This document shows positions 41,232-61,434 of a stretch of DNA of 64,000 bases, one piece after another. The first letter of the stretch is position 1, and each line of letters starts with the position of its first letter. The notes beneath the pieces are model-generated. The model was not told the DNA's origin. It did no database searches and worked only from the letters and a program-made list of their open reading frames with translations. Where the stretch lies: positions 209,979 to 273,978 of the forward strand of contig BOWN01000001.1 in the NCBI GenBank assembly GCA_019649675.1, read 5' to 3'. The stretch comes from Cryomorphaceae bacterium (GTDB taxonomy: Bacteria > Bacteroidota > Bacteroidia > Flavobacteriales > UBA7430). Made by a program: the position numbers and the translations under genes.

Positions 41232-41953
41232 ATGTTACTAGCAAAAATTGCAGACATCGGGAGTAATCCTGTAGCATTTACCTTCTTTATTGGATGTATG
41301 GCTATGTTTGCCTCTTCGGTTTTCTTCTTTGTTGAAAGAGGTTCCGTAGACAAAAATGGAAACTATCATTAACAGTTTCTGCTTTAATTACAGGTATCGC
41401 AGCAGTTCATTACCTTTACATGAGAGATTATTTCATGGCTACTGGTGATAATCCAACTGCGTATCGTTATATTGATTGGATCTTGACAGTTCCTTTAATG
41501 TGTGTTGAATTTTATCTTTTAACTAGACTTGCAGGTGCAACCAAAACACTACTTTGGAAGCTTATTATTGCATCTACATGGATGTTAGTTGCTGGATATA
41601 TTGGCGAAGCATTTAGTGATGGTAGTACATCTCACTCAGTAACTTGGGGAGTATTATCTACTGTTGGTTACTTGTATGTATTATATACAGCATGGTTTGG
41701 AGAAGTTGCTCAATTAGCAGCTAACAGTAAATCTGAAGTTATTCAGAAAGGTGTAAAGGCTTTAGCTTGGTTTGTTCTTGTTGGCTGGGCTATTTACCCT
41801 ATAGGTTACATGTGTATGGATGGTGGTTGGTTAAACAACGCATTCGGTTGGACTTCTCAAAATGTTGATTTATTTTATAATATCGCAGATGCAATCAACA
41901 AAATTGGTTTTGGTCTAGTTGTATACAACATTGCTGTAACTGAATCAAAGTAA
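41232..41953 (+). CDS. Proteorhodopsin (green-type, Met at tuning position 105), one frameshift near 41355 (intact piece 41420-41953)
   Basis: FFFVERGSVDK(K)WKLSLTVSALITGIAAVHYLYMR; RYIDWILTVPLMCVEFYLL (D97, T101, M105, E108 in GPR numbering); Schiff-base Lys in YNIADAINKIGFG. The break is an A5 run where A6 restores DKKWK. Confidence 0.95.
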
Positions 41954-41976
41954 TTATATAATAGTTAAGTTAATTC

Positions 41977-42009
41977 AAAAAGCAGGGTTTCAATACCCTG
42001 CTTTTTTTT
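41977..42009 (+). terminator. Rho-independent terminator between proteorhodopsin and blh
   Basis: AGCAGGGT-ttcaat-ACCCTGCT followed by T8. It ends 5 nt before the blh ATG. Confidence 0.8.
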
Positions 42010-42014
42010 AAACC

Positions 42015-42920
42015 ATGACAATATTTTTATACATATTTATTGTATTCGCTTTTATAATTTCTAATTTATTTCAATTGTTCAGCTCAATTTCAATTGAGAA
42101 TCAAATTATTATTTCCACATTCTTTATTATGTTGGTTGGGATACCTCACGGTTCGCTTGACCACTTATTGCTTCCATCTAAAGATTTTAAATCAAAATTA
42201 AGATTTTATACATTTTATTTGGGCTTGATTATAGCTAATTTATTAGTTTGGACTTTTAGTCATATTTCAGGATTAATATTATTTTTTATAATTTCTTCTT
42301 ACCATTTTGGGGAGTCTCAATTATTTAAATTCAACATCAAAAATAAAATAATCACCCACTTTATTTACTTGTGTTGGGGTGCCAGTGTCATATTCTCATT
42401 TTTGTTCTATAACATTGATGAATTAGAACTTTTATCTAATTCTTATGAAGATACGAGGAATCTTATTTCAAATATTAATTTAAATTTATTTTCATATCTG
42501 TTTTTGTTAAGTAACGTAATTACTTTAATTATGTTCACTTTCTTCATCTACAATAAAAAAGTAAAAGCTAACAAAGTTATTTCAGAAATCTTTTTCTTGT
42601 TTGTTATTCATCTTTCTTCTTTCTTATTTCCTCTTTTAATCTGCTTTACTTTATTTTTTATCATTCTACATTCTTTACCATCTCTTGTAAATCAGTATAA
42701 TCATTTTAAGAAACATAACATTGAATTTACACTTAAAGATTTTATTTACTTAATGGCTCCATATTCATTAGTAAGTATTTTATTTTTAATACTTATTTCT
42801 TTTTGTTCCTACGCAAATGTTATCAATTATTCAGTTCCACTAATTTCAATTATATTAATTTCTGTAATTACTCTTCCCCATAGTTTTATTATTTCAAAAT
42901 TTAATGAGTCTTTAACATAG
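42015..42920 (+). CDS. blh: Brp/Blh-family beta-carotene 15,15'-dioxygenase (retinal synthesis)
   Basis: Polytopic membrane protein with VGIPHGSLDH, SSYHFGESQ, ILHSLPS and TLPHSF His motifs. Immediately downstream of the rhodopsin gene. Confidence 0.85.
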   Translation: MTIFLYIFIVFAFIISNLFQLFSSISIENQIIISTFFIMLVGIPHGSLDHLLLPSKDFKSKLRFYTFYLGLIIANLLVWTFSHISGLILFFIISSYHFGESQLFKFNIKNKIITHFIYLCWGASVIFSFLFYNIDELELLSNSYEDTRNLISNINLNLFSYLFLLSNVITLIMFTFFIYNKKVKANKVISEIFFLFVIHLSSFLFPLLICFTLFFIILHSLPSLVNQYNHFKKHNIEFTLKDFIYLMAPYSLVSILFLILISFCSYANVINYSVPLISIILISVITLPHSFIISKFNESLT

Positions 42921-42953
42921 AAATTTTTGTATAAATAAATATAATCTGTAATT

Positions 42954-44058
42954 ATGCTAGAATTATTTGATAAGAAATTATTTCCATCCAAATATTCAGA
43001 TATACTAAATCGCATAAAGTCATTTAAACCAATTAAATATGGTGCAAGTCGGAATTATGTAAATGGCTCTGTGTCTTATTTATCTGCTTATATTTCCAGA
43101 GGTGTTATTTCAACAAAATTTATTCTTAAAACATTATTAGATAAAAATTATAATCCGGCGGATATTGAAAAATTTATTCAAGAACTTGCATGGAGAGATT
43201 ACTGGCAACAAATTTGGATTTCAAAGGGAAAACTCATCAATTCTGATTTAAAGAACAGTCAATTTCCTGTTTCTAATAGTTCTACACCAAAAGCAATAAT
43301 TGATGCTAATACCGGAATATCAGCTATAGATAAGTCAATTATAGGTCTTTATGAAACTGGTTATATGCACAATCATTTAAGAATGTATGTTGCATCTATA
43401 GTGTGTAATATTGCTCAAAGTCATTGGATAAATCCTGCGCGTTGGATGTATTATTATTTATTAGATGCTGATTGGGCTAGTAATTCGCTAAGTTGGCAGT
43501 GGGTTGCTGGATCAAATTCAAACAAAAAATATTTTGCTAATCAAGAGAATATTAATAAATACTGTTTTACTAATCAAAAAGGCACTTTTTTAGATGTAGA
43601 TTATCCAGAATTTCAAAAATTCGAAATTCCAGAAGTTCTAAAGCATTTATATTTCTTCAATTTAAAAACTCCTTTACCAAATTCTGATGATATTACTATT
43701 GAAAATTCACTTCCAACCTTATTGTATAACTTTTATAATATAGATCCAATATGGAAGAAAAATTTAAAAGCTAATAGAATTCTTCTTTTAGAACCATCTC
43801 ACTTCGAAACATATCCTGTCTGTAAAAGACTATTGATTTTATTATAGACTAGCAAAGGAAAATATTCCATCGATTCAAGTTTATGTTGGAGAATTTAAAG
43901 ATCTTATAAATAATTATTTTGTTAAAGAAGTATATTATAAAGAACATCCAACAAATAGACATTATCAGGGAGTAGAGGAATCAAGAGATTGGATGTTTGA
44001 GGTAAATGGGTATTATCCATCCTTTTTTCATTCTGGAAAAAATGTAAAAAGCAACTAA
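42954..44058 (+). CDS. Photolyase/cryptochrome-related protein that begins directly with the FAD-binding domain; one frameshift near 43840 (intact piece 42954-43847)
   Basis: YGASRNYVNGSVSYLSAYISRGVIS, ELAWRDYW, TGYMHNHLRMYVAS, LLDADWASNSLSWQWVAGS. There is no N-terminal alpha/beta domain. A ~130-aa C-terminal extension reads RILLLEPSHF...IQVYVGEFKDL...VYYKEHP. Confidence 0.75.
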
Positions 44059-44115
44059 ACTATTGAAGAATTTAATCAATAAATTGAATGTAATTTTCAG
44101 TTTTACAACAAAAAT

Positions 44116-44400
44116 TTGAAAATGAAAGAAATAAATGAGATAGATATGGATAGAATTATTGAGATGGCTTGGGAAGACAGAACTCCTTTTGAAGCTATAG
44201 AACTTCAATTCAAAATATCCGAAAAGGACATTATTAAACTAATGCGTACAAAACTTAAAAAATCAAGTTTCAAACTATGGCGTAAAAGAGTTCATAGCAG
44301 AATTAGTCATAAACACCTACACAAAAGAAATCCTGATATTACCAGGTTTAAGTGTACACGACAACGAATTATATCTAATAATAAAATTAGTAAAAGATAA
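44116..44400 (+). CDS. DUF2805 / TIGR03643-family small protein (photolyase-associated)
   Basis: RIIEMAWEDRTPFEAIELQFKISEKDIIKLMRTKLKKSSFKLWRKRV matches the family signature as I recall it. Confidence 0.75.
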   Translation: MKMKEINEIDMDRIIEMAWEDRTPFEAIELQFKISEKDIIKLMRTKLKKSSFKLWRKRVHSRISHKHLHKRNPDITRFKCTRQRIISNNKISKR

Positions 44401-44476: not shown

Positions 44477-45721
44477 ATGAACCAAATAAATTTAGTTTTA
44501 CCTAACCAATTGTTTAAGAATTCCCCGCTATTTAACAATAATTTTCCTTGTTATTTAGTTGAAGAATATTTGTTTTTCAAACAATACCCTTTTCACAAGC
44601 AAAAAATTGCTTTTCATAGATCAACCATGAAAAAGTATGCTGATTTTTTAATTAAAGAAATGAATATTGATGTTCATTATATAGAGTCAATTGATTCATT
44701 ATCTGATATTAGATTTCTTCTTCCTAAACTAAAAAAAAATGGAGTTAAACACATTAACTACATAGATCCAGTTGATAGTTGGATTCAAAAAAGATTAAAT
44801 CATGTTTGTAATGATCAAAAGATTAGCTACAAAAAGTTTGCATCTCCTTTGTTTATAAATACTGAGTCTGACTTAAAAGATTTTTTCAGACGAGATAAAA
44901 AAAAATATCATCAAACTACATTTTATAAAGAACAAAGAAAAAAGTATTCAATATTAATAAATGCTGATGGAAAACCTACAGGAGGAAAATGGACATTTGA
45001 TATCGAAAACAGAAAGAAATATCCTCTAAAAAAAGTTCCACCCCAAGTCAAATTTCCAGATTCAGATGATTATTACGAAGAAGCTAAATTGTATGTAAAT
45101 AAATACTTTTCAGATCATTATGGCACACTTTCTAAAAATCCATTATACCCTACATGCTTTGAATCAACTAAGGATTGGTTACATCAGTTTTTTGAACATC
45201 GTTTTTTTGAATTTGGAGATTATGAAGATGCTATTTTAAAGGATAACTCTATATTGAATCACAGTGTATTGACACCCATGCTAAATGTAGGTCTAATTCA
45301 GCCTAAAGAAATAATTGATGAGTGTTTAAATTATGTGAAAATCAACAATATTCCAATCAATTCATCTGAAGGATTTATTCGTCAGATTTTAGGATGGAGA
45401 GAATTCATTCGAGGAATTTATATAATTAAAGGAGGTGAAGAGCGAACTAAAAACTATTGGAAATTCGATAAGAAAATTCCGCAATCATTTTATAACGGAT
45501 CAACCGGAATAGATCCGGTAGATTGTACCATAAAAAAAATTCTTAAAACAGGATATTGTAATCATATAGAAAGGCTCATGATCTTGGGTAATTTCATGCT
45601 TTTATGTGAGTTTGATCCCAACGAAGTATATAGATGGTTTATGGAGCTCTTCATTGATTCTTATGATTGGGTAATGGTTCCTAATGTATATGGTATGAGT
45701 CAGTTTCTGATGGTGGGTTAA
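44477..45721 (+). CDS. COG3046-type photolyase-related protein (PhrB/CryB, (6-4)-photolyase-like lineage), fragment 1 (gene span 44477-45960)
   Basis: INLVLPNQLF, GGKWTFDIENRKK, LTPMLNVGLI, IRQILGWREFIRGIY, CNHIERLMILGNF, DSYDWVMVPNVYGMSQF. One missing base restores (A)DGGLMASKPY. Confidence 0.85.
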   Translation: MNQINLVLPNQLFKNSPLFNNNFPCYLVEEYLFFKQYPFHKQKIAFHRSTMKKYADFLIKEMNIDVHYIESIDSLSDIRFLLPKLKKNGVKHINYIDPVDSWIQKRLNHVCNDQKISYKKFASPLFINTESDLKDFFRRDKKKYHQTTFYKEQRKKYSILINADGKPTGGKWTFDIENRKKYPLKKVPPQVKFPDSDDYYEEAKLYVNKYFSDHYGTLSKNPLYPTCFESTKDWLHQFFEHRFFEFGDYEDAILKDNSILNHSVLTPMLNVGLIQPKEIIDECLNYVKINNIPINSSEGFIRQILGWREFIRGIYIIKGGEERTKNYWKFDKKIPQSFYNGSTGIDPVDCTIKKILKTGYCNHIERLMILGNFMLLCEFDPNEVYRWFMELFIDSYDWVMVPNVYGMSQFLMVG

Positions 45722-45960
45722 TGGCATCAAAACCATACATCAGCTCCAGTAATTATATAATAAAAATGAGTAATTACGGAAAGGGAGATTGGCAGTCCAA
45801 ATGGGATGGGCTGTTTTGGCGATTTATGAACATACATCGTGACTTTTTTTTATCAAATCCTAGATTGGGAATGTTGATTCGTATTTTTGATAAAATGCCA
45901 TCAAATAAGAAGCAAAAACACATTGAAGAGGCAGAGGCTTTTCTTGATCAATTAAAATAA
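45721..45960 (+). CDS. COG3046-type photolyase-related protein, fragment 2 (C-terminus)
   Basis: MASKPYISSSNYIIKMSNYGKGDWQSKWDGLFWRFM continues the family's C-terminal block. Confidence 0.85.
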   Translation: MASKPYISSSNYIIKMSNYGKGDWQSKWDGLFWRFMNIHRDFFLSNPRLGMLIRIFDKMPSNKKQKHIEEAEAFLDQLK

Positions 45961-46039: not shown

Positions 46040-46069
46040 AGGTCAAGCTACTTTATTATAACTTGACCT
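46040..46069 (-). terminator. Hairpin with T7 tail on the minus strand (A7 on plus)
   Basis: AGGTCAAG-N14-CTTGACCT, and the minus strand continues TTTTTTTG. It lies about 520 nt beyond the stop of the MerR/B12 regulator gene. Confidence 0.5.
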
Positions 46070-46586
46070 ATAAGGTTCCCCCGAACCATGAAAAAAAGTT
46101 TGTTGACTTATTACTTAACAAAATCTAACCTACTATAGGAAAGTTTTGTTTCCAAAATGCAATTGAACAAATGACTTTTTAAAGTCTTATTCTGATTTTA
46201 TCAGTAAAAAAGTCATCCCTGGTGATATAATTTTATTGAGTCAATAATCTGGTTAGCTATCACTTTTTTTACACATAACTTTAATATTTATCAAAAATAC
46301 CCATTTTGTATAATATATACAATTAAAAAGTTATACGAAATATTTACACTATTTTATCTTTATACATCAATTTTTGAGCTACCTAATTTGTGATTAGATT
46401 ATCTCTTACTTAAAATAGACATATATAACATGACATGTTATCCACAATCAAAATTGTATAGTTAAATGATAATTATTTTAATGAATTTGAGGTTTTGGAT
46501 AGTTTTTTTTTACTGAAAAATGAACAAGGTTGTAAACACCTGCAAAATATAATTTTTGTATTCTGTCTTAAGAAAATTAATGAAAA

Positions 46587-47480
46587 CTAACTAGATGAAT
46601 CGAGCAGCTTAATAAAAGAGTCTAAGTCATGGATTAGAGTTATACTAGGTTCTTTTTGTTTAGGGAATTTTATGCTTTTATTTGGAGTGACAACAAAAAT
46701 TTTTCCTTGAGGGAATATTTTACTAAGTTTTTGAAGGTGTTGTTCTGACATTTGCATTGAATAATTTGCAAGAAGGAAAAGTAGAATATTATCAATTTTA
46801 TGTTTTTCAGCTACACCAGTTAGAGAGTCAATTGGAAGATTATCACCTAAATATAGGACATTGAATTCTTTTAGAGATAGAATATATTTTGCAAAAAGAA
46901 GTCCAATTTCATGGAATTCATTTTCAGGAAGAAATAATAACCATTTTTCCTTGTCAGTGTTACTGACTGCTGTTCTATCAATTAAGGTATATAATTTTTG
47001 TTTGATTAATTCAGACAGAAAATGTTCTTGTGAGGGTGACATTTTATTTGTTAGCCATAGAAGTCCAACCCTTTTAAGTAATGGTAGAATTATTACCTTA
47101 TAAAAGACAATAAAATCAAATTCATTGAGAGCTTTGATAAATAGTCTATTAAATTTGTATTCATCAAAATTTATTGCTGATATTATAAAATTGTTCAGGT
47201 AGTAACTAACTTTAACATCTTTGTTATCCGATAATCCAATTCGTTCAACAGCTTGTTGAACGTCATCATCAGTCATTTTGCTAACCTTGGATATTTTGTG
47301 TCCATTTTCAAGTAATAACTTTGTATTAATTCCTCTTACTAGTAGGCTATCAGAGTAAACTCTAATATTAGTCTCTGTGCGACTTGGGACTAAATACGAG
47401 TACCTATTTTCCCATGTTCTTAGATTTAATTTTGGGATATTAGTTATTTTTGAAAATTGATCAATATTATAGCTTGTCAT
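46587..47480 (-). CDS. MerR-family HTH regulator fused to a B12-binding domain (CarH/LitR-like candidate light-responsive regulator)
   Basis: N-terminal YNIDQFSKITNIPKLNLRTWENRYSYLVPSRTETNIRVYS (MerR HTH). C-terminal LFLPENEFHEIGLLFAKYIL...VLYLGDNLP (.xHxxG cobalamin-binding loop). Confidence 0.8.
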   Translation of the reverse strand: MTSYNIDQFSKITNIPKLNLRTWENRYSYLVPSRTETNIRVYSDSLLVRGINTKLLLENGHKISKVSKMTDDDVQQAVERIGLSDNKDVKVSYYLNNFIISAINFDEYKFNRLFIKALNEFDFIVFYKVIILPLLKRVGLLWLTNKMSPSQEHFLSELIKQKLYTLIDRTAVSNTDKEKWLLFLPENEFHEIGLLFAKYILSLKEFNVLYLGDNLPIDSLTGVAEKHKIDNILLFLLANYSMQMSEQHLQKLSKIFPQGKIFVVTPNKSIKFPKQKEPSITLIHDLDSFIKLLDSSS

Positions 47481-47497: not shown

Positions 47498-47965
47498 TTA
47501 ATTAGAGTTAAATATTTGATCCATTTTGATTCTTCTATATTCAAATATAGATTCAAGTTGTTTTTTTATAAATAAAGTGTTTGCAATTCTTCCTATTAAG
47601 CCGAATGGAGGTTTATATGTAACGATATCAGTCATTTTAACTTTATTATCGCCCTCTGATTCAAATAAATGTTGATGATGCCAAAGTGAATATGGTCCAA
47701 TTCGTTGCTCATCAATAAAATATTTGTTTTCTAATACATGTGTTATTTCTGTAACCCAATTAAGTTTTATGTTTAAAATGGGAGCCACATTATATGAAAT
47801 AATCATTCCCGGATATATCTTATTTTTAATTTTAGAAGTGATATTAAATAACATATAATCTGGGGTGATTTTTTTTAAATTCTTGGGAGAGGATGCAAAT
47901 TCCCAAATAGATTTTAAATCTGTATTAAGATATTGAACTGAAGAAAATTGATAATGGCTTTTCAT
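47498..47965 (-). CDS. SRPBCC-family protein (COG4276-like)
   Basis: LKSIWEFASSPKNLKKITP ... FIDEQRIGPYSLWHHQHLFE ... TDIVTYKPPFG. Confidence 0.7.
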   Translation of the reverse strand: MKSHYQFSSVQYLNTDLKSIWEFASSPKNLKKITPDYMLFNITSKIKNKIYPGMIISYNVAPILNIKLNWVTEITHVLENKYFIDEQRIGPYSLWHHQHLFESEGDNKVKMTDIVTYKPPFGLIGRIANTLFIKKQLESIFEYRRIKMDQIFNSN

Positions 47966-47992: not shown

Positions 47993-48685
47993 CTAAAGTA
48001 ATCTAGATTTTCCCCCATCAACTTTTATAATTTGACCGGTCATCCATGATGACTCAGTCAATATATATTGAGCAAGACTTGCAATATCATCAGGTTGGCC
48101 GATTCTCGGAATAGGATGAGTAGAAGCAATTCGCTCAACTTTATCTTTGGTATTGAGTAAATGCTCACTTAGTCGTGATTCAATAATTGAAGGAGCAATT
48201 ATATTAAATAGAATTTTAGGCGCATATTCTCTGGCTAGTGAAGTGAATAATCCTTCTAGCGCAGCTTTCGATGTTGCTGTTGAAGCATGAAAATTAAATC
48301 CACTTTGAGCACATACTGATGAAAAGCCTATAACAGATGATAAATTAGACTTCTTAAGGGGTTTCAATAGTAACTGCAGCGATTTAATGAAACCGACAAC
48401 ATTTACTTGAAATTCAAGTTCAAAATCATCTTGCTTAAGGCCTCTAAATGGTTTTAAATTAATTGTGCCAGGACAATAAACAAAACCATCGAGTTTTTCT
48501 GGTAACTCAAAATCAAAAGTATTGGAGTTTTGAATATCATAGAAACCAGTTACTAAATTTGGATGACTTATCATAATATTATTTTTACAATATGTTGCAA
48601 AAACTCGATGGCCACTATTTAAAAGTTTATTAGTTAAATCGAGCCCTATTCCACTGGAAGCTCCCAAAATCAGTACTTCTTTCAT
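47993..48685 (-). CDS. Short-chain dehydrogenase/reductase family protein with Thr at the catalytic-Tyr position
   Basis: ILGASSGIGLDL (TGxxxGxG-like), FSSVCAQSG, then TATSKAAL where classical SDRs have Y...K. Confidence 0.8.
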   Translation of the reverse strand: MKEVLILGASSGIGLDLTNKLLNSGHRVFATYCKNNIMISHPNLVTGFYDIQNSNTFDFELPEKLDGFVYCPGTINLKPFRGLKQDDFELEFQVNVVGFIKSLQLLLKPLKKSNLSSVIGFSSVCAQSGFNFHASTATSKAALEGLFTSLAREYAPKILFNIIAPSIIESRLSEHLLNTKDKVERIASTHPIPRIGQPDDIASLAQYILTESSWMTGQIIKVDGGKSRLL

Positions 48686-48722
48686 ATGAATAACTTTTTT
48701 AAGTAATTTCTATACAAAGTTA
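48686..48722 (-). promoter_or_regulatory. Candidate promoter (-7 box TAACTTTG) overlapped by TTGTATAG-N16-TTATTCAT, abutting the ATG of the SDR-SRPBCC-MerR/B12 operon
   Basis: The minus strand reads TAACTTTGTATAGaaattacttaaaaaagTTATTCAT-ATG. Left half 8/8 and right half 6/8 versus TTATACAA. Confidence 0.45.
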
Positions 48723-48767: not shown

Positions 48768-49298
48768 TTAATTGATAGCAACTTCAATAATTTGCAATTT
48801 AAAATCTGGCTCTTTATTTGAAACTATCATAAATGTTAGTTCAGTAATTAATTTTTTGTCAAAATTTTCTAAGGAAAGAGGGGTGCCTCTAAAAACAGGT
48901 TTAAATTCAGACAAATTCAATGTAATCTGTTGTTCTGAACCGTTAGTTTTGAAATCTTGAGCATAAGAATAATAATTAGAAAGGTTATCTTTAATACGAA
49001 TTTGATAAGTGTTCCCATCACCGATAACTTTCAAATTAATTTTTTCAAAACTATTTAATTGAATTCTTTCACGAGTTCTAATTGAAGCAAATCCTCCATT
49101 AAATTTTGATGATAATTTTCCAAAAAAAATTAATCTATTATTTTGGATTTTAAAGTCACCAATAGAAACTCCACCCATAACATTATCATTAACAATTTCC
49201 CATTGTTTTTGAGAAGCTTCTATTGTAATGGATTCATTTTGACCATTTATTTCATAATTATTCAAAAACACAATGAAAATAAAAAGTAAATTCTTCAT
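48768..49298 (-). CDS. CIA30 (complex I intermediate-associated protein 30)-domain secreted protein
   Basis: WEIVNDNVMGGVSIGDF ... GKLSSKFNGGFASIRT. Likely start MKNLLFIFIVF at 49298, overlapping the upstream stop (ATGA). The ORF track extends to 49340. Confidence 0.75.
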   Translation of the reverse strand: MKNLLFIFIVFLNNYEINGQNESITIEASQKQWEIVNDNVMGGVSIGDFKIQNNRLIFFGKLSSKFNGGFASIRTRERIQLNSFEKINLKVIGDGNTYQIRIKDNLSNYYSYAQDFKTNGSEQQITLNLSEFKPVFRGTPLSLENFDKKLITELTFMIVSNKEPDFKLQIIEVAIN

Positions 49299-50065: not shown

Positions 50066-50163
50066 ATTTGTCGATAAGTGAGCAAATAAAACACCGACAA
50101 TACAAAGGAAAAAATTTATTAAAGAAAATGAATTTGCACTAATTGAGTAAAAATAAGAAGCGA

Positions 50164-52071: not shown

Positions 52072-52326
52072 ATTCAAAATTATTTTGAAGTTTAAATAAG
52101 TATTAACAGGTTCTTCGGACTTGTATCTATATATATCTATGGAATAAAAAAACTTAATGTTTGACCAATTTTTATAACTATAAAGCGTTAAAAAAATAAT
52201 TTTCCATCAAAATTATTCTATTGTACAATAAATAAATTCAGTTATTATCTAAACTGTTTATTTACCGGATCAGATGTCATTGATGAAAACTTTAGTTAAT
52301 TAGAAAAGTATATCACAAAACGAATT

Positions 52327-53152: not shown

Positions 53153-53569
53153 TTACCCATAATATTCTACAAAATTATTTTCAGTTTCATGAAGTCTAAC
53201 AGAATGTAATTGCTTACCAAGCTTCTTAATATCATCATAAAGTTCATTGTAAATACCTATTACAATATTCTCAGCGCTAGTGATAACGTTCTTAAGAAAA
53301 TCAACTTCTAGGTTTAAGTTTTTATGATCCATTTTATCTGTTATTTTTGATTTTATTAAGTCACTTAAAACTTTCATATCAATGACATATCCGGTCTCAA
53401 CATCAACTGTTCCTTTGACAGTTACAAAGACCTCATAATTATGACCATGCCAATTTTTATTTGAACATTTTCCAAAAATAGACTCATTTTTATTATCATT
53501 CCATGAAGGATTAAATAGCCTATGTGCTGCGTTAAAACGCTCTCTTCTTATGACAAAAACTTCTTTCAT
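53153..53569 (-). CDS. 6-pyruvoyl-tetrahydropterin synthase / QueD-family protein
   Basis: FNAAHRL ... GKCSNKNWHGHNYEVFVTVKG ... LDHKNLN. Confidence 0.85.
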   Translation of the reverse strand: MKEVFVIRRERFNAAHRLFNPSWNDNKNESIFGKCSNKNWHGHNYEVFVTVKGTVDVETGYVIDMKVLSDLIKSKITDKMDHKNLNLEVDFLKNVITSAENIVIGIYNELYDDIKKLGKQLHSVRLHETENNFVEYYG

Positions 53570-53652: not shown

Positions 53653-54987
53653 TTAATTTTCAACACAATATCTTTTAACTACTTTGCCTGATGAGTAAAC
53701 ATCAAAAATAATTTGATGAAAAAGTACATTTGTTATCTTTCTTCCCATAATATCTATCGAATATAAGTAGTCATCTTGTGATGGTAATATATTTACATCA
53801 TAAATATTTAAATCACTAGGAACAAGAACTGCATCAATAACATGAACAACACCATTATCTGTTTCAATATCAGCAATACTTACATTAGCATTGTCTATTT
53901 GTACCATACCATCCATTATACTCACTGTTAGTTCAGTACCTGCCAAAGTTGGAACCATCATTCCATTGGATAAATCAGTAGAAAGTACATTACCTGCGTG
54001 AACATGATGAGTAAGTATAGTTGTTAAATCTCCTGTTGGGTCTTCTAATAACTGAGCAATTAATCCTTCAGGTAATAATGCAAATGCAGCATCTGTTGGA
54101 GCAAAAACAGTAAATGGTCCATCACCGCTCAATGTTTCAACTAATCCAGCTGCTACAACTGCTGCTTCTAATGTTGTGTGATTCTCTGAATTCACTACCA
54201 CATCTACAACTGTTGTTGGTTCTTCCTCTTCGGGTACAAGAACTGCATCAATAACATGAACAACACCATTATCTGTTTCAATATCAGCAATACTTACATT
54301 AGCATTGTCTATTTGTACCATACCATCCATTATACTCACTGTTAGTTCAGTACCTGCCAAAGTTGGAACCATCATTCCATTGGATAAATCAGTAGAAAGT
54401 ACATTACCTGCGTGTACATGATGAGTAAGTATAGTTGTTAAATCTCCTGTTGGGTCTTCTAATAACTGAGCAATTAATCCTTCAGGTAATAATGCAAATG
54501 CAGCATCTGTTGGAGCAAAAACAGTAAATGGTCCATCACCGCTCAATGTTTCAACTAATCCAGCTGCTACAACTGCTGCTTCTAATGTTGTGTGATTCTC
54601 TGAATTCACTACCACATCTACAACTGTTGTTGATTGACTAGGTTGTACAGTAATAGAACTAACCATTCCCAAAGCAGCATGGTTTCCAATTGAACAGTCG
54701 TAAGTAAATGAACCAGAGGTATTGAAAGTTATACATCCCAAATTACCACCAGAATTTGGAGACAAATATTGGTCAACTAAGTCTTGTGGATTCCCATAAC
54801 CTGCAAAATTTACATCATGATAACCATCTTCATTGAACCAACATACTTCATCTCCAACATAAATCGTTTCATTTACAGTTGAGAAGTAATAATTCCCGGC
54901 AATAACATTATGGGTTGTTTGGGCAATTGTAGAAAATGGGATAATCAAGATTATGGCAAACAAGTTTTTTGTAAATAAATTTTTCAT
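53653..54987 (-). CDS. Secreted cupredoxin-like domain + 2x fasciclin (FAS1) protein with compact T9SS-type tail
   Basis: YDCSIGNHAALGM (C-x4-H-x4-M), two FAS1 units (GPFTVFAPTDAAFALLP...VIDAVLVP), tail LYSIDIMGRKITNVLFHQIIFDVYSSGKVVKRY. Confidence 0.8.
   Translation of the reverse strand: MKNLFTKNLFAIILIIPFSTIAQTTHNVIAGNYYFSTVNETIYVGDEVCWFNEDGYHDVNFAGYGNPQDLVDQYLSPNSGGNLGCITFNTSGSFTYDCSIGNHAALGMVSSITVQPSQSTTVVDVVVNSENHTTLEAAVVAAGLVETLSGDGPFTVFAPTDAAFALLPEGLIAQLLEDPTGDLTTILTHHVHAGNVLSTDLSNGMMVPTLAGTELTVSIMDGMVQIDNANVSIADIETDNGVVHVIDAVLVPEEEEPTTVVDVVVNSENHTTLEAAVVAAGLVETLSGDGPFTVFAPTDAAFALLPEGLIAQLLEDPTGDLTTILTHHVHAGNVLSTDLSNGMMVPTLAGTELTVSIMDGMVQIDNANVSIADIETDNGVVHVIDAVLVPSDLNIYDVNILPSQDDYLYSIDIMGRKITNVLFHQIIFDVYSSGKVVKRYCVEN
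53815..54645 (-). repeat. Tandem 414-bp (138-aa) near-identical duplication encoding the two FAS1 domains
   Basis: acaagaactgcatcaataacatgaacaacacc occurs at 53822 and 54236 (period 414). I noticed only one or two differences (gcgtgaacatg versus gcgtgtacatg). Confidence 0.9.
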
Positions 54988-55011: not shown

Positions 55012-55626
55012 TTAGTAATTAATATTGACTGAAATAGTGAAATCATCATAAATCATTTTATCACCAAGGTTTTTAAAAAATGATCCTGAACTATATTTTA
55101 TGTCAAACTTGGTTCTATCAATATTTATTTCAGCAGTTGCTACATTATTATTAAGTTCTGTTTCGAATTCTATTGTTTCAGTAACATCTTTAATAGTTAG
55201 ATTGGCAACAACGTTGTACTTGTTGTTATTTAATTTGGTACAATCAGTGATCTTCAGAGTTGATAATGGATAGTCCTTAACATTAAAAAAATCATCAGAG
55301 TTCAAATGCTCTTCAAGTTTATTTTTGTAAGGACCACTTAAATCTGTGCAATTTATTGTTAACATGTCAATGATAACTTCACCGCCAGTAAGTTCATCAT
55401 TATCAAACGTAAGATTTGCAGCTTTTATGTTGATTACTCCCTCGTGAAATCCAGTAACCTTTTCACCTTTCCATTTAACAGTACTACTTTCAGTATTTAC
55501 TAATACAACTTCATCATTAGCTAAATAAGTAGTTTTATTAAAACTGTTAAATGTAAAGTCTAGTGCCAATGAACTTAATGAAATCATAAGAATGGTTGAC
55601 AATAAATAGTAATTAATTTTTTTCAT
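55012..55626 (-). CDS. YceI-like (polyisoprenoid-binding) periplasmic protein
   Basis: ESSTVKWKGEKVTGFHEGVINIKAANLTFDNDELTGGEVIIDMLTINC ... LTIKDVT. Confidence 0.8.
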   Translation of the reverse strand: MKKINYYLLSTILMISLSSLALDFTFNSFNKTTYLANDEVVLVNTESSTVKWKGEKVTGFHEGVINIKAANLTFDNDELTGGEVIIDMLTINCTDLSGPYKNKLEEHLNSDDFFNVKDYPLSTLKITDCTKLNNNKYNVVANLTIKDVTETIEFETELNNNVATAEINIDRTKFDIKYSSGSFFKNLGDKMIYDDFTISVNINY

Positions 55627-55640
55627 AACAAATAAGTTTT

Positions 55641-55677
55641 TAATTTTGTATAGATTTTAAAAGGCAAAGTTATACAA
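55641..55677 (+). promoter_or_regulatory. Candidate promoter (-7 box TAATTTTG) overlapped by TTGTATAG-N16-TTATACAA in the yceI/azurin divergent region
   Basis: Half-sites at 55646-55653 and 55670-55677. An extra TTATACAA lies at 55693-55700. Confidence 0.55.
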
Positions 55678-55726
55678 AAGTTTTTTAAATAGTTATACAA
55701 ATTTTTAATTTTTAAACGAAAAAAAA

Positions 55727-56221
55727 ATGAAATCACTGATTATCAAATTATTATTAGTTACTTCCACGTTATTCATAAGCTGTGGTTCAAATGAAACCAA
55801 GACAGAAAAACCTGTAAATAATATTAATCCAGAAACCGAAAAGGTATTGGAAGAATTTACAATTGAAGCACTTGGAAATACAATGATGGATATGCAATAT
55901 AGTTTAAAAAATATTTCTGTAAATGCAGGATCCTGGGTTAAAATTAATTTAATTAATAAAGGAGAGGATCCTGCGATGATTCACAATATTTTAATTGTCA
56001 ATTACAACAAAAGATCAGAAGTTGCAAAAGCTGCAATAGAAGCGGGGCCAGAGTTAGATTACATTCCAAAAAGTAAAGATGTTATTGCTGGATCAAAGCA
56101 AGCTAACCCAGGAGAAACGGTTACTCTAGAGTTTAAAGCACCTTCAAAAGGTAATTATGAATTTTTCTGTAGCTATCCTGGGCATTCAAGTAAAATGAGA
56201 GGATATTTCTTTGTTAAATAG
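55727..56221 (+). CDS. Azurin-family blue copper lipoprotein
   Basis: LFISCGS lipobox, MIHNILIV, FFCSYPGHSSKMRGYFFVK (Cys-His-Met copper ligands). Confidence 0.85.
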   Translation: MKSLIIKLLLVTSTLFISCGSNETKTEKPVNNINPETEKVLEEFTIEALGNTMMDMQYSLKNISVNAGSWVKINLINKGEDPAMIHNILIVNYNKRSEVAKAAIEAGPELDYIPKSKDVIAGSKQANPGETVTLEFKAPSKGNYEFFCSYPGHSSKMRGYFFVK

Positions 56222-56260
56222 TATATACATGTTAATTGAAATATTGACAAATAGTTGATG

Positions 56261-56286
56261 AAAGTCACATTATGTGACTTTTTTAT
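56261..56286 (+). terminator. Rho-independent terminator after the azurin gene
   Basis: AAGTCACA-tta-TGTGACTT followed by TTTTTATT. Confidence 0.75.
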
Positions 56287-56303
56287 TCTCTAATTTAATT
56301 TAT

Positions 56304-56483
56304 ATGATTGAACATCAATTCACATGTCCTTATTGTTTTGAATCTGAATTAAAACTTATCGACTTTTCTGTAAAATCTCAAAATTTTATAGAAGATTGTG
56401 AAGTATGCTGTAATCCAATTGAATTCAATATAGAACTTCAAAATGGATTTATCACAGCATTTGAAGCTATGAAATTGGATTAA
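56304..56483 (+). CDS. CPXCG-motif cysteine-rich small protein
   Basis: MIEHQFTCPYCFES...DCEVCCNPIEF. The ORF track starts at 56274, but ATG 56304 is more likely. Confidence 0.65.
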   Translation: MIEHQFTCPYCFESELKLIDFSVKSQNFIEDCEVCCNPIEFNIELQNGFITAFEAMKLD

Positions 56484-56505
56484 ATAGTTTTTATTAATAA
56501 ATTTT

Positions 56506-56985
56506 ATGAAAAGACCATGGAATATTGTTAATCCAGCGATTTACAGCTTGGTAACTTATGATGAAAAAGATAATTTAAACATGAATATATGCAGTTATGT
56601 TTCCGCTGTTAGTTTGAAACCAAAGATATATTCAATAGCTGTCGACTATTCTACAAAAACTTACGAAAATTTAAAACTAAATTCATTCGTAGTGCTGCAG
56701 TTGCTAAGTAAATCTCATCTTAAAATTATTCGTAAGTTAGGTAAAACAAGCGGTTATTTTTTTAACAAAGAGAATTATTTAAGATCTATAGAAATGTTAG
56801 AAAGTTGGAAAAAAAAAACAGTCTTAAAAGATACTTGCGCTTTACTTGAATTAAAGAAAATGAATGAAATAAACATAGAAGGAGATCATGCTATGTTCAC
56901 ATTTAGTGTTTCTAAATATAAAACATTATCGGAAGGTGGGATTCTAACTTTTAAAGATTTGATTGATAACAAAATTATTTTATAA
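56506..56985 (+). CDS. Flavin reductase-like domain protein
   Basis: NMNICSYVSAVSLKPKIYSIAVDYSTKTYENL...GKTSG...ALLELK...GDHAMFTFSV fits the FMN-binding split-barrel pattern. Confidence 0.6.
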   Translation: MKRPWNIVNPAIYSLVTYDEKDNLNMNICSYVSAVSLKPKIYSIAVDYSTKTYENLKLNSFVVLQLLSKSHLKIIRKLGKTSGYFFNKENYLRSIEMLESWKKKTVLKDTCALLELKKMNEINIEGDHAMFTFSVSKYKTLSEGGILTFKDLIDNKIIL

Positions 56986-57597
56986 ATGCACTTTTCAAAA
57001 CAAGATATTTTAAACACATCACGAATTAAAAGATTAAATTTAATTAACTCTATAACTGGAATTAAACCCGCCAATTTAATTGGTACAGTTTCAAAAGATG
57101 GCCATACTAATTTAGCAATTTTTAGCTCAGTAATTCATTTAGGAAGTAACCCAGCTTTAATCGGATTCATGACAAGACCTGATAAAAAAGTAAGAAGAGA
57201 TACACTTAATAATATTCTTGAAACAAATTATTACACAATCAATCACGTACATCAAAATTTTATTGAACAGTCTCATAAAACATCTGGAAAGTATAAGAAA
57301 GAAGTATCTGAATTTGATATGTGTAATCTTACTGAAGATTATTTATTTGACTTCCCTGCCCCCTTTCTTAAAGAAAGTAAAATTAAAATGGGGTTAAAAC
57401 TTGAAAACATTATAGATATCACAGATAATCAAACAAAATTAATTTTAGGATTAATAGAGCATATATATATTGATGATGTTGCTTTAGAGGATAACGGAGA
57501 TATTAATCTTCAAATTATAAATGATGTAGGAATTGGTGGTTTAAATAACTATTACAAGCTTGAAAAAATTGCACACTATCCTTATTTTAAAATTTAA
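56986..57597 (+). CDS. Flavin reductase family protein (COG1853-like)
   Basis: NSITGIKPANLIGTVSKDGHTNLAIFSSVIHLGSNPALIGFMTRP...RRDTLNNILETNYYTINHV. Its start abuts the previous stop. Confidence 0.65.
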   Translation: MHFSKQDILNTSRIKRLNLINSITGIKPANLIGTVSKDGHTNLAIFSSVIHLGSNPALIGFMTRPDKKVRRDTLNNILETNYYTINHVHQNFIEQSHKTSGKYKKEVSEFDMCNLTEDYLFDFPAPFLKESKIKMGLKLENIIDITDNQTKLILGLIEHIYIDDVALEDNGDINLQIINDVGIGGLNNYYKLEKIAHYPYFKI

Positions 57598-57650
57598 ATT
57601 GTGGATTTAATTACTAAAAATATAAACCACTTTGGTATTAATTTTATGAA

Positions 57651-58952
57651 TTGATGCAACTCAATAATCAAAAATTAAAAAATAACGAACACATTAGTGA
57701 GTCTAAAGAAAAAATTAAAATACACATAATTGGAGCAGGTATTAGTGGTCTAATTGCTGCAAAAGTCCTTGAAGAAAGTGGTTATTCTCCAATATTAATT
57801 GAGTCCAGTAGTAATGTAGGTGGAAGAATTAAAACCATTATTAAGGAAGGTTATCAATTAGATAAAGGATTTCAGGTACTTCTTACAGAATACCCAAAAG
57901 CTAAAAAACATCTTGATTACAGAGCATTGAGATTACAAAAACTTGTTTCTGGAGCATGTATTTTCATAAATAATAAACAATATATAATAGGTAATCCGAT
58001 TAGAAATATTTCTTTACTAATTCCAACTTTATTCTCTGATATTGGAAATATTTCTGACAAACTCAAAATATTAAAATTGTACCTATATCTGAGATTTAAA
58101 AGCATAGAAAAAATATTTTCATCAAAAGAATTAAAAACCATTGATTACCTTGAAAAGTGGGGTTTTTCAAAAAAAATAATTGAAAATTTCTTCGAACCTT
58201 TTTTTGCAGGAATTTTTTTGGAAACAGAATTATCAACCTCAAGTAGAATGTTTGAATTTGTTTTTAAAATGTTTGCTCAAGGTGACGTGGCTATTCCAGA
58301 GTCAGGAATTCAAGAGATTCCTTATCAAATTGCAAAGAAATTAACTAGGACAAATTTTATGTTTAATACTCAAGTCGATAAGATATTAGAGGGTGAAATA
58401 ATTCTTAAAGATAAAAGTAAAATTAAAAGCGATTATACTATAATAGCTACCGAAGCTAAAAATTTACTCGAAGGCCGTAATTTGAGTTCTGTTAAATGGA
58501 AAAGCTGCGTGAACTTTTATTTTGAAATTAAACAAAAATCTCTAGGAAATGGTTTAATTGGTCTTTTACCAGGTAAAAATACTGTTATTAATAATATATT
58601 TTTTGTTTCTGGAATTAAATCAAAAATTACTGGAGCAAAACAATTACTATCTGTTACAGTAATTGATTCTAAATCACTTTCGAATGGTGAGCTTATTGAC
58701 AGAGTTAAATATGAGCTCAAAAAATATTGTAGAATTAATGTCATTAGACTAATTAGTCAATTTAATGTTACAAAATCCCTCCCTGATTTACATGATATAT
58801 CAAACACTAAAACACCATCTGAATTCCAAATTTCTGACACTATATTTTTAGCTGGAGATCATGAATTAAATCCGTCTTTGAATGCAGCAATAACATCTGG
58901 TGAAATGTCTGCTTTACAACTAATTAAGGTTGATAAATTGAATAATCCATAA
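57651..58952 (+). CDS. NAD(P)/FAD-dependent oxidoreductase (amine-oxidase/desaturase-like fold)
   Basis: IHIIGAGISGLIAAKVLEESGYSPILIESSSNVGGRIKT dinucleotide fold. ATG at 57654 is an alternative to TTG 57651. Confidence 0.75.
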   Translation: MMQLNNQKLKNNEHISESKEKIKIHIIGAGISGLIAAKVLEESGYSPILIESSSNVGGRIKTIIKEGYQLDKGFQVLLTEYPKAKKHLDYRALRLQKLVSGACIFINNKQYIIGNPIRNISLLIPTLFSDIGNISDKLKILKLYLYLRFKSIEKIFSSKELKTIDYLEKWGFSKKIIENFFEPFFAGIFLETELSTSSRMFEFVFKMFAQGDVAIPESGIQEIPYQIAKKLTRTNFMFNTQVDKILEGEIILKDKSKIKSDYTIIATEAKNLLEGRNLSSVKWKSCVNFYFEIKQKSLGNGLIGLLPGKNTVINNIFFVSGIKSKITGAKQLLSVTVIDSKSLSNGELIDRVKYELKKYCRINVIRLISQFNVTKSLPDLHDISNTKTPSEFQISDTIFLAGDHELNPSLNAAITSGEMSALQLIKVDKLNNP

Positions 58953-58959
58953 TAAATAT

Positions 58960-59742
58960 TTGAGACTATATCGTATGATTTTTAGCAGGAAAGAAGTATT
59001 TGATAACAAAATTCCAGACTATATACTTGGTATTTATTATTTCATCGATGAAAATAACCATATTTTATATATAGGAAAGAGTAAAAATATAAAAAAACGC
59101 ATTCAACAACACATCAAAAATGGTCGAAAAAGACTCATTAATAAATTTTCAAAATTAAAGTTGAAAATATTTAGAACTGAATTAGAAGCTTTACTCTATG
59201 AGTCTCAAGAAATTAAAGAATATTTACCAGTGTTTAACAGAAGGCTCCGCAAAATAAAATCTTCAGTTGGGATATTTAACAAAAAAAATAAATTTGGACA
59301 TAGCTACTTTTACATAAAAAAAAGTGCTGAAGACTCAATCATAGATTTTAGAACAAAAAAACATGCACTTAAGTTTATAGATAAAATGAGTAAGAAATTT
59401 AATTTATGTCCAAAATTAAATGGATTGGATAACTCTAGTAAATTTTGTTTTCAATTTCATTTGAAGTCTTGTCAAGGAGCATGCAATAATCTTGAAAAAC
59501 CACTTTCTTACAATAGTAGATTTCAAGAAAGTTTATCTGAAATTTATTGTTTACCGAAAAATTGTGAGTTAGTTTTTCATGATAATAAATTTTCCACTTT
59601 TGTTAACATCAAAAATAGTATCATCACATCTTTTGGTGTCAAAAATCATTCTTTTTTTAAAATTAATCATCCGTCACATGATGAATTGAAAATTATTAAT
59701 TCATATCAGAAAATTTTAGTCCCAGAAACTATTTTAGTTTAA
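58960..59742 (+). CDS. GIY-YIG nuclease domain protein
   Basis: LGIYYFIDENNHILYIGKSKNIKKRIQQH ... EALLYESQEIKEYLPVFNRR. Alternative ATG at 58975. Confidence 0.75.
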   Translation: MRLYRMIFSRKEVFDNKIPDYILGIYYFIDENNHILYIGKSKNIKKRIQQHIKNGRKRLINKFSKLKLKIFRTELEALLYESQEIKEYLPVFNRRLRKIKSSVGIFNKKNKFGHSYFYIKKSAEDSIIDFRTKKHALKFIDKMSKKFNLCPKLNGLDNSSKFCFQFHLKSCQGACNNLEKPLSYNSRFQESLSEIYCLPKNCELVFHDNKFSTFVNIKNSIITSFGVKNHSFFKINHPSHDELKIINSYQKILVPETILV

Positions 59743-59839
59743 TGATAATAAAGTCCTATTCAGGAAATTTTCATTTTCAATGCATATTAAGTTAAAAAAG
59801 AATTTTTGTAAATAATTATTAAGTCTTATCTGTTAAAAA

Positions 59840-61294
59840 TTGAATAAAGATAGTATCAATATTGTTTGGTTGAAAAGAGATATTCGCTCACAAGATCATG
59901 AACCACTTTTTAATGCGGAGAATTCAAATCTTAAATATTACATTATTTACATATTTGAACCTTCAATGATAGCGTATCCTGATACTAGTCTCAGACATTT
60001 AATCTTTGTTTACCACTCTATTTTAGCTTTAAATAGAATTTTGGCAAAATTTAATCGAAAAGTAGAAATTTTTTATGGTGAGTCTCTTGAAGTACTTTCA
60101 TTTTTCAAAAAGTCTTTTAAAGTAAAATCTATTATTAGCTATCAAGAAAGCGGCACTGAATTTTCATGGGATAGAGATAAAAAAATACAACAGTTTTGTA
60201 AATCAAATAAAATTGATTGGCATCAATATCAAAGGGATGGAATCATCAGAGGCATTAAAAGTCGTAACAATTGGCGAAAATATTGGAATATGAAAATGAA
60301 TGAGCCGCTAATTCATAATTGCTATTCAACATGTAAAAATGAAGAACTTCAGCATTCTTTTTTAATTCCATCAAGCCTAGAAAACAAATTACAACTATAT
60401 CCAAAAAACATACAACCTGCCGGTGAAAAAAACGCTTGGAAATATTTACAATCATTCTCAGCCAAAAGAGGTGCTAATTATCATAAATTTATATCAAAAC
60501 CCCAACAAAGTAGAATTTCTTGTAGCAGAATATCACCATACTTATCTTGGGGAAATTTGAGTGTTAAGCAAGTTTATCAGTTCATTAACTTACACGCTAA
60601 TAGAACAATTTACGACAGAGCATTTTCAGCTATGCTCATGAGACTTAACTGGCATTGCCATTTTATTCAAAAGTTTGAGGTTGATTGTAATTATGAAAAA
60701 TTTTGCATTAATAAAGGTTTTGAGCTTTTAAAGCGAAATAAAAATTTTAGATTTATTAAGGCATGGAAAACTGGTAATACTGGTTATCCTCTAATTGATG
60801 CCTCAATGCGTGCACTAAAAGAAACAGGCTGGATCAATTTTCGAATGCGCGCAATGCTTGTTTCGTTTTTAACTTATAATTTAGATCAAGATTGGCGTGA
60901 TGGAGTATATCATATGGCTAAACTATTTTTAGATTATGAGCCAGGTATTCATTTTACTCAATTCCAAATGCAAGCAGGAACAACAGGTATAAATACGATT
61001 CGTTTATATAATCCAGTAAAAAACTCCAAAGAACATGATCCTCAGGGAAAGTTTATTAAAAAATGGATACCTGAACTAAGTAAAATACCACCTAAACTCA
61101 TTCATGAGCCATGGGAAATGACCGCAATGGAACAGTCATTTTATGGAGTTTTGATTGGTAAAACGTATCCTTACCCTATAGTCAATTTAAAAATAAGTTC
61201 TAAAAATGCCCTAGATAAAATTTGGAAACATAAAAAACACCCCCTAGTAAAAAAAGAAGTCAATAAAATTCTTCAAAAACACGTAAACAAATAA
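59840..61294 (+). CDS. Cryptochrome/photolyase family flavoprotein (full length; subclass not assigned)
   Basis: [103 protein letters not shown] start. Confidence 0.85.
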
Positions 61295-61296
61295 AG

Positions 61297-61434
61297 ATGA
61301 AAAAAAAACATCTTCCTGAAAAAATATGCCCTGTTTGTAAACGATCTTTTTTATGGAGGAAAAAATGGGAGAAAAATTGGCTAGAAGTCAAATACTGTAG
61401 TCAAAGATGTAGAATTAATAAGAATAAAATATAA
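61297..61434 (+). CDS. DUF2256 zinc-ribbon small protein (not in the ORF track, 45 aa)
   Basis: [45 protein letters not shown], starting 3 nt after the photolyase-family stop. C..C...WRKKW...VKYCS..C is the DUF2256 pattern as I recall it. Confidence 0.7.

Follow-up and report, generated by a model that had tools for sequence, protein, structure and literature searches.

The stretch of DNA analysed here (the window, 64,000 nt from an uncultured marine flavobacterium) holds, between positions 41232 and 61434, a block in which genes for a proteorhodopsin (PR), three types of photolyase and a MerR-B12 regulator lie together, and this block is likely to represent, as arranged in this genome, a light regulon under the control of a class I coenzyme-B12 photoreceptor-repressor of the CarH/LitR type on a 32-bp operator. 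The light induction of PR in marine Flavobacteriia has been measured repeatedly, and the literature searched attaches to it neither a sensor nor a DNA site. This locus offers a candidate sensor, of the CarH type, together with a sharply defined putative site of 32 bp that marks the rest of the regulon, and it joins rhodopsin phototrophy with vitamin-B12 dependence, two themes of ocean microbiology. A first-pass annotation of the same DNA had proposed a coordinated light or UV stimulon; the shared motif, the regulator and the cross-genome evidence presented below strongly support the coordination, whereas the induction by light is a prediction.

The putative operator is a 32-bp palindrome, TTGTATA-N18-TATACAA, whose extended form is about TTGTATAAnTTTT...AAAAnTTATACAA. 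Two exact copies of it occur in the window, against an expectation of 0.08, and a position matrix trained only on loci with a regulator at most 64% identical finds four window sites, all of them at promoters in the block, with the next best match in the 64 kb at 7.3 bits and a maximum score of 18.0 bits in 200 Markov shuffles. The perfect copies lie in the 100-nt region between the divergent YceI and azurin operons (55646-55677, 31.1 bits), where there is also an extra half-site (55691-55701), and 2 nt before the ATG of a PAS-UbiA fusion gene (50589-50620, 30.8 bits). The remaining matrix sites abut the ATG of an SDR gene (48686-48717, 23.8 bits) and precede the ATG of PR by 34 nt (41166-41197, 19.7 bits, TTGCCTA-N18-TATACAA). 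Together with a copy on the minus strand ahead of the remnant of a small open reading frame, or ORF (46306-46338, with a spacer of 19 nt here and of 18 nt in L008, a close relative; loci and contigs used for comparison are numbered with an L), the operator stands at five promoters, i.e., those of PR, the small-ORF remnant, SDR-SRPBCC-carH, PAS-UbiA-CIA30 and the divergent YceI/azurin operons. Orthologous sites are present in L008, L010 and L012 for the copy at 48686, and in L008, L010 and L143 for that at 55646.

CarH operators that have been footprinted have a TnnACA core, with which the half-site TATACA agrees, and are built of tandem direct 11-bp repeats, nnnnTnnACAn (PMC9304148). A reading of the 32-bp site as direct repeats (positions 4-9, 15-20 and 26-31) was rejected, since the middle repeat is not conserved in a profile of 80 sites. 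The same profile displays TAAnTTT inside each half-site, a box that we take to resemble the -7 box of Bacteroidota; this box, along with the frequent distance of 0-3 nt to the ATG, suggests that the promoter lies inside the predicted operator, leaving leaders of about 15 nt. A sigma-70 promoter scan gave 126 promoter-like sites where 135 were expected, with a model that does not cover Bacteroidota promoters.

Is the site confined to this genome? Relatives with a regulator 96% and 85% identical to that of the window have the same gene order, save that the latter has no pterin-4a-carbinolamine dehydratase (PCD) and no CDP-alcohol transferase at this position; in distant genomes the order around carH is shuffled, and the operator and the families persist, so the neighbours are not a random assortment. 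A scan of a genome collection with the regulator alignment returned 39 loci (41-52% identity) of marine Flavobacteriales, Cryomorphaceae and Crocinitomicaceae, all of them in metagenome-assembled genomes (MAGs) or single-amplified genomes, as well as three distant ones from outside the Flavobacteriales. With at most one mismatch, the operator is found in 37 of the 39 former and in none of the three latter. Across the relatives, this tolerance yields 89 sites in 896 kb, against approximately 2.4 expected from composition, at 0-70 nt, often 1-3 nt, from the start codons of recurring families. Next to the operators of these loci stand PTPS-FolE-crtI(-crtB) with SDR-MMPL divergent from it; small ORF-carH with a divergent cupredoxin-fasciclin gene; a series of SRPBCC, two flavin reductases, DUF2256 and DPRP that runs on to a photolyase; carH with a divergent crtI; and also PR. 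The cupredoxin-fasciclin and YceI families are operator-adjacent in many loci, and members of the regulon elsewhere include GSHPx and Fpg.

A second search, independent of the regulator, used the core pattern across metagenome contigs and gave 120 arbitrary matches. Of these, the 19 with the most operator-like spacers and flanks adjoin regulon families in 14 cases, the families flanked including PR, a YceI-CIA30-DUF2805 unit, DPRP, carH/crtI, a divergent PTPS-SDR pair, PCD and Fpg. The PR case is an unrelated metagenome contig (L084) with the operator 39 nt upstream of a PR that is 78% identical, and in L065 and L066 DUF2805 belongs to the operator-preceded YceI-CIA30-DUF2805 unit. The MAG GCA_002696275.1 is informative in another sense: carH adjoins crtI on one contig (NZRO01000011, L035), and another (NZRO01000024, L178, 8001-15857) carries a one-strand string PAS-UbiA-PCD-SDR-MMPL-GIY-YIG-photolyase-DPRP behind two tandem operators, an arrangement that, from its layout, looks like a trans-acting regulon. 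Tandem operators, with starts 33-64 bp apart, occur in L178 (7916-7989), L012 (8057-8121), L177 (5387-5482), L030, L032, L042 and L045, and they may, like the extra half-site of the YceI/azurin region, reflect cooperative binding. Genes for TonB-dependent receptors (CarboxypepD_reg, Plug and barrel) stand behind operators or in regulon clusters in L123 (~2018), L174 (8364), L013 (15808-18189) and L177 (12529-14157); an import of B12 or of some other cofactor by them is no more than conjecture.

The regulator itself (46587-47480, minus strand) matches MerR_1 (4.6e-10) and B12-binding_2 (8.1e-10) above the cut-offs and aligns to the CarH of Thermus thermophilus (TtCarH; PDB 5c8d, 3whp), with its residues 4-47 facing 12-55 of TtCarH. 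Its WLTNKMSPSQEH aligns with the Wx9EH cap motif of the four-helix bundle of TtCarH, and its EFHEIG with ERHEIG, the ExHxxG of the Rossmann domain that provides the His acting as lower axial ligand. Furthermore, 12 homologues, the most distant at 46% identity, show no variation at W142, E152 and H153 or in ExHxxG. By these sequence marks, the MerR-B12 protein is classed as a class I CarH/LitR regulator. The operator abutting the SDR start codon sits at the head of the SDR-SRPBCC-carH operon, which implies a predicted autoregulation of carH.

By analogy with characterised CarH proteins, the following mechanism is proposed. In the dark, the regulator loaded with coenzyme B12 (AdoB12) would bind the 32-bp palindrome, which would overlap the promoter in each of five or more transcription units, and would thereby block their transcription; near-UV to green light would break the Co-C bond, the oligomer would fall apart and the units would be derepressed. 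The outputs would then be of several kinds: light harvesting by PR, plus blh if transcription reads through a hairpin between both genes (41977-42009); DNA photorepair and excision, served by the short SPL/NewPHL photolyase, by the CryB-like protein and a third member of the CPF family with its DUF2256 neighbour, and by a nuclease resembling Cho; a branch for pterins (FolE, PTPS, SDR), the PAS-UbiA/CIA30 module and periplasmic and membrane proteins; and the operon of the regulator itself. The binding of this operator by the regulator, its action as a repressor and not as an activator, and the dependence on AdoB12 and light are what we infer.

Several observations weigh against such a proposal. 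The match of the regulator to the Rossmann B12-binding family of Pfam reaches 20.3 bits, below the cut-off of 32.1. Most loci were fetched via the regulator, so that its co-occurrence with the operator is partly by construction, the exceptions being L178 and the metagenome scan. The PR operator of the window has two mismatches, the orthologous site being perfect in L007, L008 and L009. The two TnnACA cores are inverted here, 25 bp centre to centre, and not arranged as the tandem direct repeats of characterised CarH systems. Finally, the earlier claim that a shared promoter motif ties the block together holds for the five operators and not for PCD, the CDP-alcohol transferase, the string from blh to DPRP, or the CPF-DUF2256 pair (484 aa for the former), which have no site of their own. 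A terminator-like hairpin precedes blh, the short photolyase, DUF2805 and DPRP, separating them from PR, and both this string and the CPF-DUF2256 pair may or may not be co-transcribed with the genes upstream.

The alternative that best survives these points accepts the palindrome as real and has it read by a different transcription factor or by an alternative sigma factor, or else supposes a signal that is not light (e.g., singlet oxygen or oxidative stress, copper, growth phase), with CarH controlling its own operon at most. The link between regulator and site consists of co-occurrence and of a 6-nt resemblance to TnnACA, the inverted architecture is unlike that of all footprinted CarH operators, and many members have an oxidative-stress-like character (GSHPx, Fpg, cupredoxins, flavin reductases). 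Nevertheless, carH is the sole recurring gene of the loci with a DNA-binding domain, preceded itself by an operator in most of them; the annotated neighbourhoods contain no sigma or anti-sigma gene; a palindrome is more in keeping with a multimeric repressor than with a sigma factor; and the list of targets is specifically light-related (PR, crt genes, three photolyase types). We therefore regard this alternative as unlikely, albeit the most serious of those considered. Still less probable is that the regulator binds the site as an activator in the manner of MerR, or as a CarA-like B12-independent regulator. Classical MerR proteins do activate from within the promoter spacer, myxobacteria possess B12-independent CarH paralogues, and the Rossmann score under the cut-off would agree with such a reading; nonetheless, Wx9EH and ExHxxG are strictly conserved, and B12-independent paralogues are not expected to retain both, and the 32-bp site, which often abuts the start codon, covers the likely promoter or leader rather than lying in a 19-bp spacer. 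That the genes adjoin by chance or as housekeeping functions (folate, quinone, repair) and share no control, or that the cluster is decaying into pseudogenes, is very improbable and already contradicted, for although FolE and PTPS are also housekeeping enzymes and at least five genes look frameshifted in the window, chance is at odds with the operator statistics and the recurrence across genomes, the affected genes are all intact in relatives, the lesions are 1-nt indels, in or beside short homopolymer runs, that occur outside the block as well, and the PCD and CDP-alcohol transferase frameshifts are absent from several conspecific short-read assemblies.

How does the proposed CarH-type regulon compare with known ones? 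CarH/LitR light regulons are well studied (PMC9304148), and the first-pass statement that such a stimulon had not been dissected overstated its novelty, given the published work on CarH/LitR, on the LitR of Pseudomonas, on Dokdonia and on photolyase clusters. The kind of system is known; what is new is the inverted operator, the predicted PR target and a broad set of conserved modules without known function in abundant uncultured marine Flavobacteriales. With class I CarH/LitR of T. thermophilus, Myxococcus xanthus and Bacillus megaterium, the system shares the MerR domain, Wx9EH, the His ligand, the TnnACA core and the targeting of its own operon, as well as the position of carH beside crtI, crtB and crtY in many distant relatives; the overlap of operator and promoters would be a further likeness, judging here from position. 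Unlike in those systems, the operator is an inverted 32-bp repeat with a fixed 18-nt spacer instead of three or four tandem direct 11-bp repeats, and the predicted regulon is broader than carotenogenesis, including PR, three photolyase types, pterin genes, PAS-UbiA and cupredoxins. The inverted operator thus poses a structural question to the CarH field, in which only tandem direct repeats have been characterised so far.

A repertoire similar to that of the block is found near a LitR-family gene in Pseudomonas putida and P. mendocina (class II LitR, PplR/PmlR), whose light-induced regulon includes phrB, cryB, an SDR, a FAD oxidoreductase, folE and folM (PMC9758184). These class II proteins have only the four-helix bundle, without the Rossmann part (PMC9758184), and depend on a short LOV protein, whereas the regulator described here has a full B12 module; the furan fatty-acid gene ufaM of Pseudomonas is not in the window, and PR and blh are not in Pseudomonas. 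In Dokdonia MED134, light induces PR, crtBI with a MerR gene and a class I photolyase, and a three-gene operon of DASH, photolyase-related and photolyase genes is light-responsive (bioRxiv 10.1101/2023.12.25.573297); likewise, a photolyase-related gene cluster is reported as enriched in PR-containing marine Flavobacteriia (PMC5932025). In the passages considered, neither account names a regulator mechanism or a cis-element, both of which are proposed here from sequence; in the window, PR and blh are physically joined to the photolyase cluster. The light-induced sets of Dokdonia and Pseudomonas fit the proposed regulon, which is therefore externally consistent. Within the literature searched for CarH/LitR together with Flavobacteria, Bacteroidetes or proteorhodopsin, no prior description was found.

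A wider, tentative idea, which we hold as possible rather than probable, is that a single B12 photoreceptor gates PR, the supply of carotenoid and retinal, and photorepair across widespread uncultured marine Flavobacteriales, through an unusual palindromic operator, with the strictly conserved PAS-UbiA, SDR-MMPL, SRPBCC and pterin modules making and exporting a light-induced lipid or pterin photoprotectant. If true, the light responses of these bacteria, PR included, would depend on the supply of a scarce, externally acquired vitamin. The operator can be used to read light regulons in uncultured genomes, and it flags as likely photoprotective members PAS-UbiA, SRPBCC, CIA30, cupredoxin-fasciclin, the small ORF and the flavin-reductase pair.

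Regarding the composition of the block, Pfam matches above the curated cut-offs agree almost gene for gene with the first-pass gene list over 41232-61434, and essentially every gene of that list is confirmed by them (SRPBCC via its fold). On the plus strand, PR (41232-41953, Bac_rhodopsin 2.3e-34) is followed by blh, for the retinal-making beta-carotene 15,15'-dioxygenase (42015-42920, BCD 2.6e-36), the short photolyase (42954-44066, FAD_binding_7 only), DUF2805 (44116-44400, 1.1e-32) and the CryB/PhrB-like protein (44477-45960, DPRP 1.3e-52 plus FAD_binding_7). The minus strand then takes over with the decayed small-ORF remnant (~46100-46300), carH, the SRPBCC/Bet v1-fold protein (47498-47965, 155 aa), the SDR (47993-48685, adh_short_C2 2.1e-31), a CIA30-domain protein with a signal-peptide-like N-terminus (48768-49298, CIA30 1.9e-35), the fusion of PAS_9 with a MenA-like UbiA prenyltransferase (49295-50586), PCD (50850-51083, Pterin_4a), FolE (52327-53013, GTP_cyclohydroI), PTPS (53153-53569), a cupredoxin-fasciclin protein (53653-54987) and YceI (55012-55626), FolE and PTPS being the distal genes of the YceI-side operon. 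A CDP-alcohol phosphatidyltransferase gene lies at 51301-52071. A rightward string on the plus strand (55727-61434) closes the block in the order azurin-like cupredoxin, CPXCG zinc ribbon (56304-56483), two Flavin_Reduct proteins, a FAD oxidoreductase of the amine-oxidase family (Amino_oxidase), a GIY-YIG nuclease resembling Cho and the N-terminus of UvrC, the full-length CPF protein (59840-61294, 484 aa, DNA_photolyase plus FAD_binding_7) and DUF2256 (61297-61434), and the same order is found in L010, L143 and the conspecific short-read contig L179. The small-ORF remnant, the CDP-alcohol transferase and the zinc ribbon were absent from the earlier list.

The first-pass label of "island" does not apply in the mobile-element sense. 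The G+C content is about 29% throughout the window (26-31% in the block and 24-33% outside), a tRNA scan of the whole window found none, and no integrase-like domain turned up among the ORFs scanned with Pfam; given also the synteny in relatives and a variation confined to the left flank, a mobile genomic island was rejected. A scan of the whole window against Rfam likewise gave no match.

As for the photolyase-family proteins, the short one had been described as starting with its FAD domain, which is borne out: FAD_binding_7 spans residues 74-223, the N-terminal alpha/beta antenna domain is lacking, and its PDB matches align only to the catalytic-domain residues ~200-420 of full-length photolyases. 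This fits the published SPL/NewPHL class (PMC8476157, PMC7736829), whose members have the FAD domain only, 250-400 aa and a C-terminal extension (PMC8476157), and which includes a Bacteroidetes subgroup without the Fe-S cysteines (PMC8476157, PMC7736829). The DPRP protein shows full-length similarity to PhrB/CryB (PDB 7ykn, 4dja and 3zxs, E ~1e-70), with a gap of 10 residues and no Cys opposite the CxxC...C of 7ykn, and the [4Fe-4S] Cys trio was not found either in the DPRP proteins of L008 (11493-12977), L010 (11611-13095), L013 (13047-14534) and L178 (14379-15857). With a DPRP domain layout like that of the FeS-BCP/CryPro (6-4) photolyases, from which they differ in lacking the C-terminal ligands of the [4Fe-4S] cluster, bound there by four conserved cysteines, these CryB/PhrB-like proteins look like an iron-free branch of the FeS-BCP family. 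The CPF protein at 59840-61294 has its best matches, with E-values that differ little, among Cry-DASH, archaeal CPD and (6-4) photolyases, and none of the CPF, SDR, oxidase and flavin-reductase proteins reached an NCBIfam equivalog cut-off. In the PR, as judged by eye, there are residues of the D97/T101/E108 type, an M at position 105 and a Lys for the Schiff base, its motifs in the intact orthologue being YIDWILTVPLMCVEF and NKIGFG, and blh adjoins it; between both genes, a terminator-like hairpin, GCAGGG...CCCTGC followed by T8 (41977-42009, plus strand), was read directly from the sequence, not being listed by a simple terminator scan.

Five genes look split in the window (PR, the FAD-only photolyase, DPRP, PAS-UbiA and PCD), and all the frame-breaking differences from L008 are 1-nt indels, nearly all of them in or beside a short homopolymer run. 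The frame of PR is broken by a 1-nt deletion at ~41350, next to an A-run; the short photolyase has three 1-nt indels (43827, 43849 and 44028), DPRP one (45706), PAS-UbiA two (~50162 and ~50169), and PCD, which is intact at 77-80 aa in L001 and L008, has indels at 50900 and 51051. The CDP-alcohol transferase differs from conspecific contigs by indels at 52027/52056, and a further 1-nt homopolymer indel relative to conspecific short-read contigs lies at 52074. In Illumina-derived contigs of close relatives, the five genes are uninterrupted (240, 373, 494, 429 and 77 aa, respectively), those of PR, the short photolyase and PAS-UbiA in each of L008-L011. Seven conspecific short-read contigs (98.3-99.8% identity, from different samples) concur against the window at 50900 and 52027/52056; they cover the indels of PCD and the CDP-alcohol transferase, those of PR, the short photolyase, DPRP and PAS-UbiA having been compared solely with L008 (89% nucleotide identity). 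Outside the block, the gene for an HtrA-like protease (40040-41060, minus strand) is broken in the same way, and in L007, a related "pilon" long-read contig, the fragmentation is even greater. Pseudogene decay was rejected on account of the 1-nt, homopolymer-associated nature of the indels and the absence, in the conspecific short-read contigs, of those that they cover. Thus, the frameshifts are most likely assembly errors, and a long-read assembly with incomplete polishing is the probable source of the window, which makes other "pseudogenes" in it equally suspect; the split genes are treated here as functional because they are intact in relatives, because the lesions are 1-nt homopolymer indels and because conspecific contigs disagree with the window. 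The cupredoxin-fasciclin gene contains a tandem duplication of 414 bp (53822-54632, 2.0 copies, 99% identical), and the number of fasciclin units ranges from one to three in relatives (301, 444 and 590 aa); the duplication could be a real copy-number variation or an artefact of long-read assembly.

Among the remaining modules, the SRPBCC protein, of a fold that binds small ligands, is the most constant neighbour of carH, adjacent or close to it in most loci, and is 61-66% identical where CarH is ~46%. Its predicted fold is Bet v1/START (pLDDT 80, i.e., predicted local distance difference test; Foldseek E ~3e-6), and homologues of this 155-aa protein are named SRPBCC by NCBI and JGI; Pfam at E up to 1 gave no match for it, for the small ORF or for an operator-adjacent protein of 136 aa. 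The PAS-UbiA fusion is kept in the 120 homologues listed of 2949 (59-99% identity), save one truncated sequence; a canonical LOV identity of the PAS domain was rejected, since the aligned GKQRVSLFSP has, by eye, no LOV cysteine. The recurring linkage UbiA-SDR-MMPL (L178, L177) suggests the synthesis and export of a prenylated compound, and the periplasmic cupredoxin, YceI and flavin-reductase proteins could plausibly serve in photo-oxidative protection. The families FolE, PTPS, SDR and PCD are all represented in the block; elsewhere, PTPS-FolE(-crtI-crtB) starts 1 nt from the operator in L013-type loci, with SDR divergent across it, and PCD is operator-preceded in L061 and lies within the PAS-UbiA operon in L178, where it adjoins SDR. 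By their family membership, these four (PCD in other lineages) resemble a tetrahydrobiopterin-type route; FolE and PTPS have further roles in making folate and queuosine.

The small ORF encodes a basic, conserved protein of 54-64 aa (MGRKRK...IIFYTDKISIRLKN...FWK.KFP.GK) and is operator-preceded, often just upstream of carH. It is intact, with its operator, in L010 (11059-11253), L014 (4224-4391), L013 (9844-10008) and many other loci, and has in-frame stops, with the operator retained, in the window and in L008. DPRP and carH are separated by 626 nt, in which the minus strand at 46040-46110 displays a hairpin, GGTTCGGGGGAACC, and a strong terminator-like one, GGTCAAG...CTTGACC followed by a T-run, both kept in L008 and matching no Rfam family.

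The left flank alone varies among relatives: an Exo_endo_phos gene that abuts PR in L008 and L009 is 20 kb away from it in the window, preceded at its ATG by a weak operator-like sequence (19740-19770, 17-nt spacer, two mismatches). Among the ORFs of the intervening gap (19770-41000), some are of great size (1252, 921 and 1896 aa, with CotH, lamin-tail and Fn3-associated domains) and several have no Pfam match; the gap is a strain-variable surface-protein region. Words like TGTACAACCATAAAC, which surfaced merely as low-scoring matrix matches, repeat in the giant ORFs between 29900 and 38400 (30441, 31221, 34797, 34959, 35040, 35283 and 38291), and presumably correspond to repeated protein domains.

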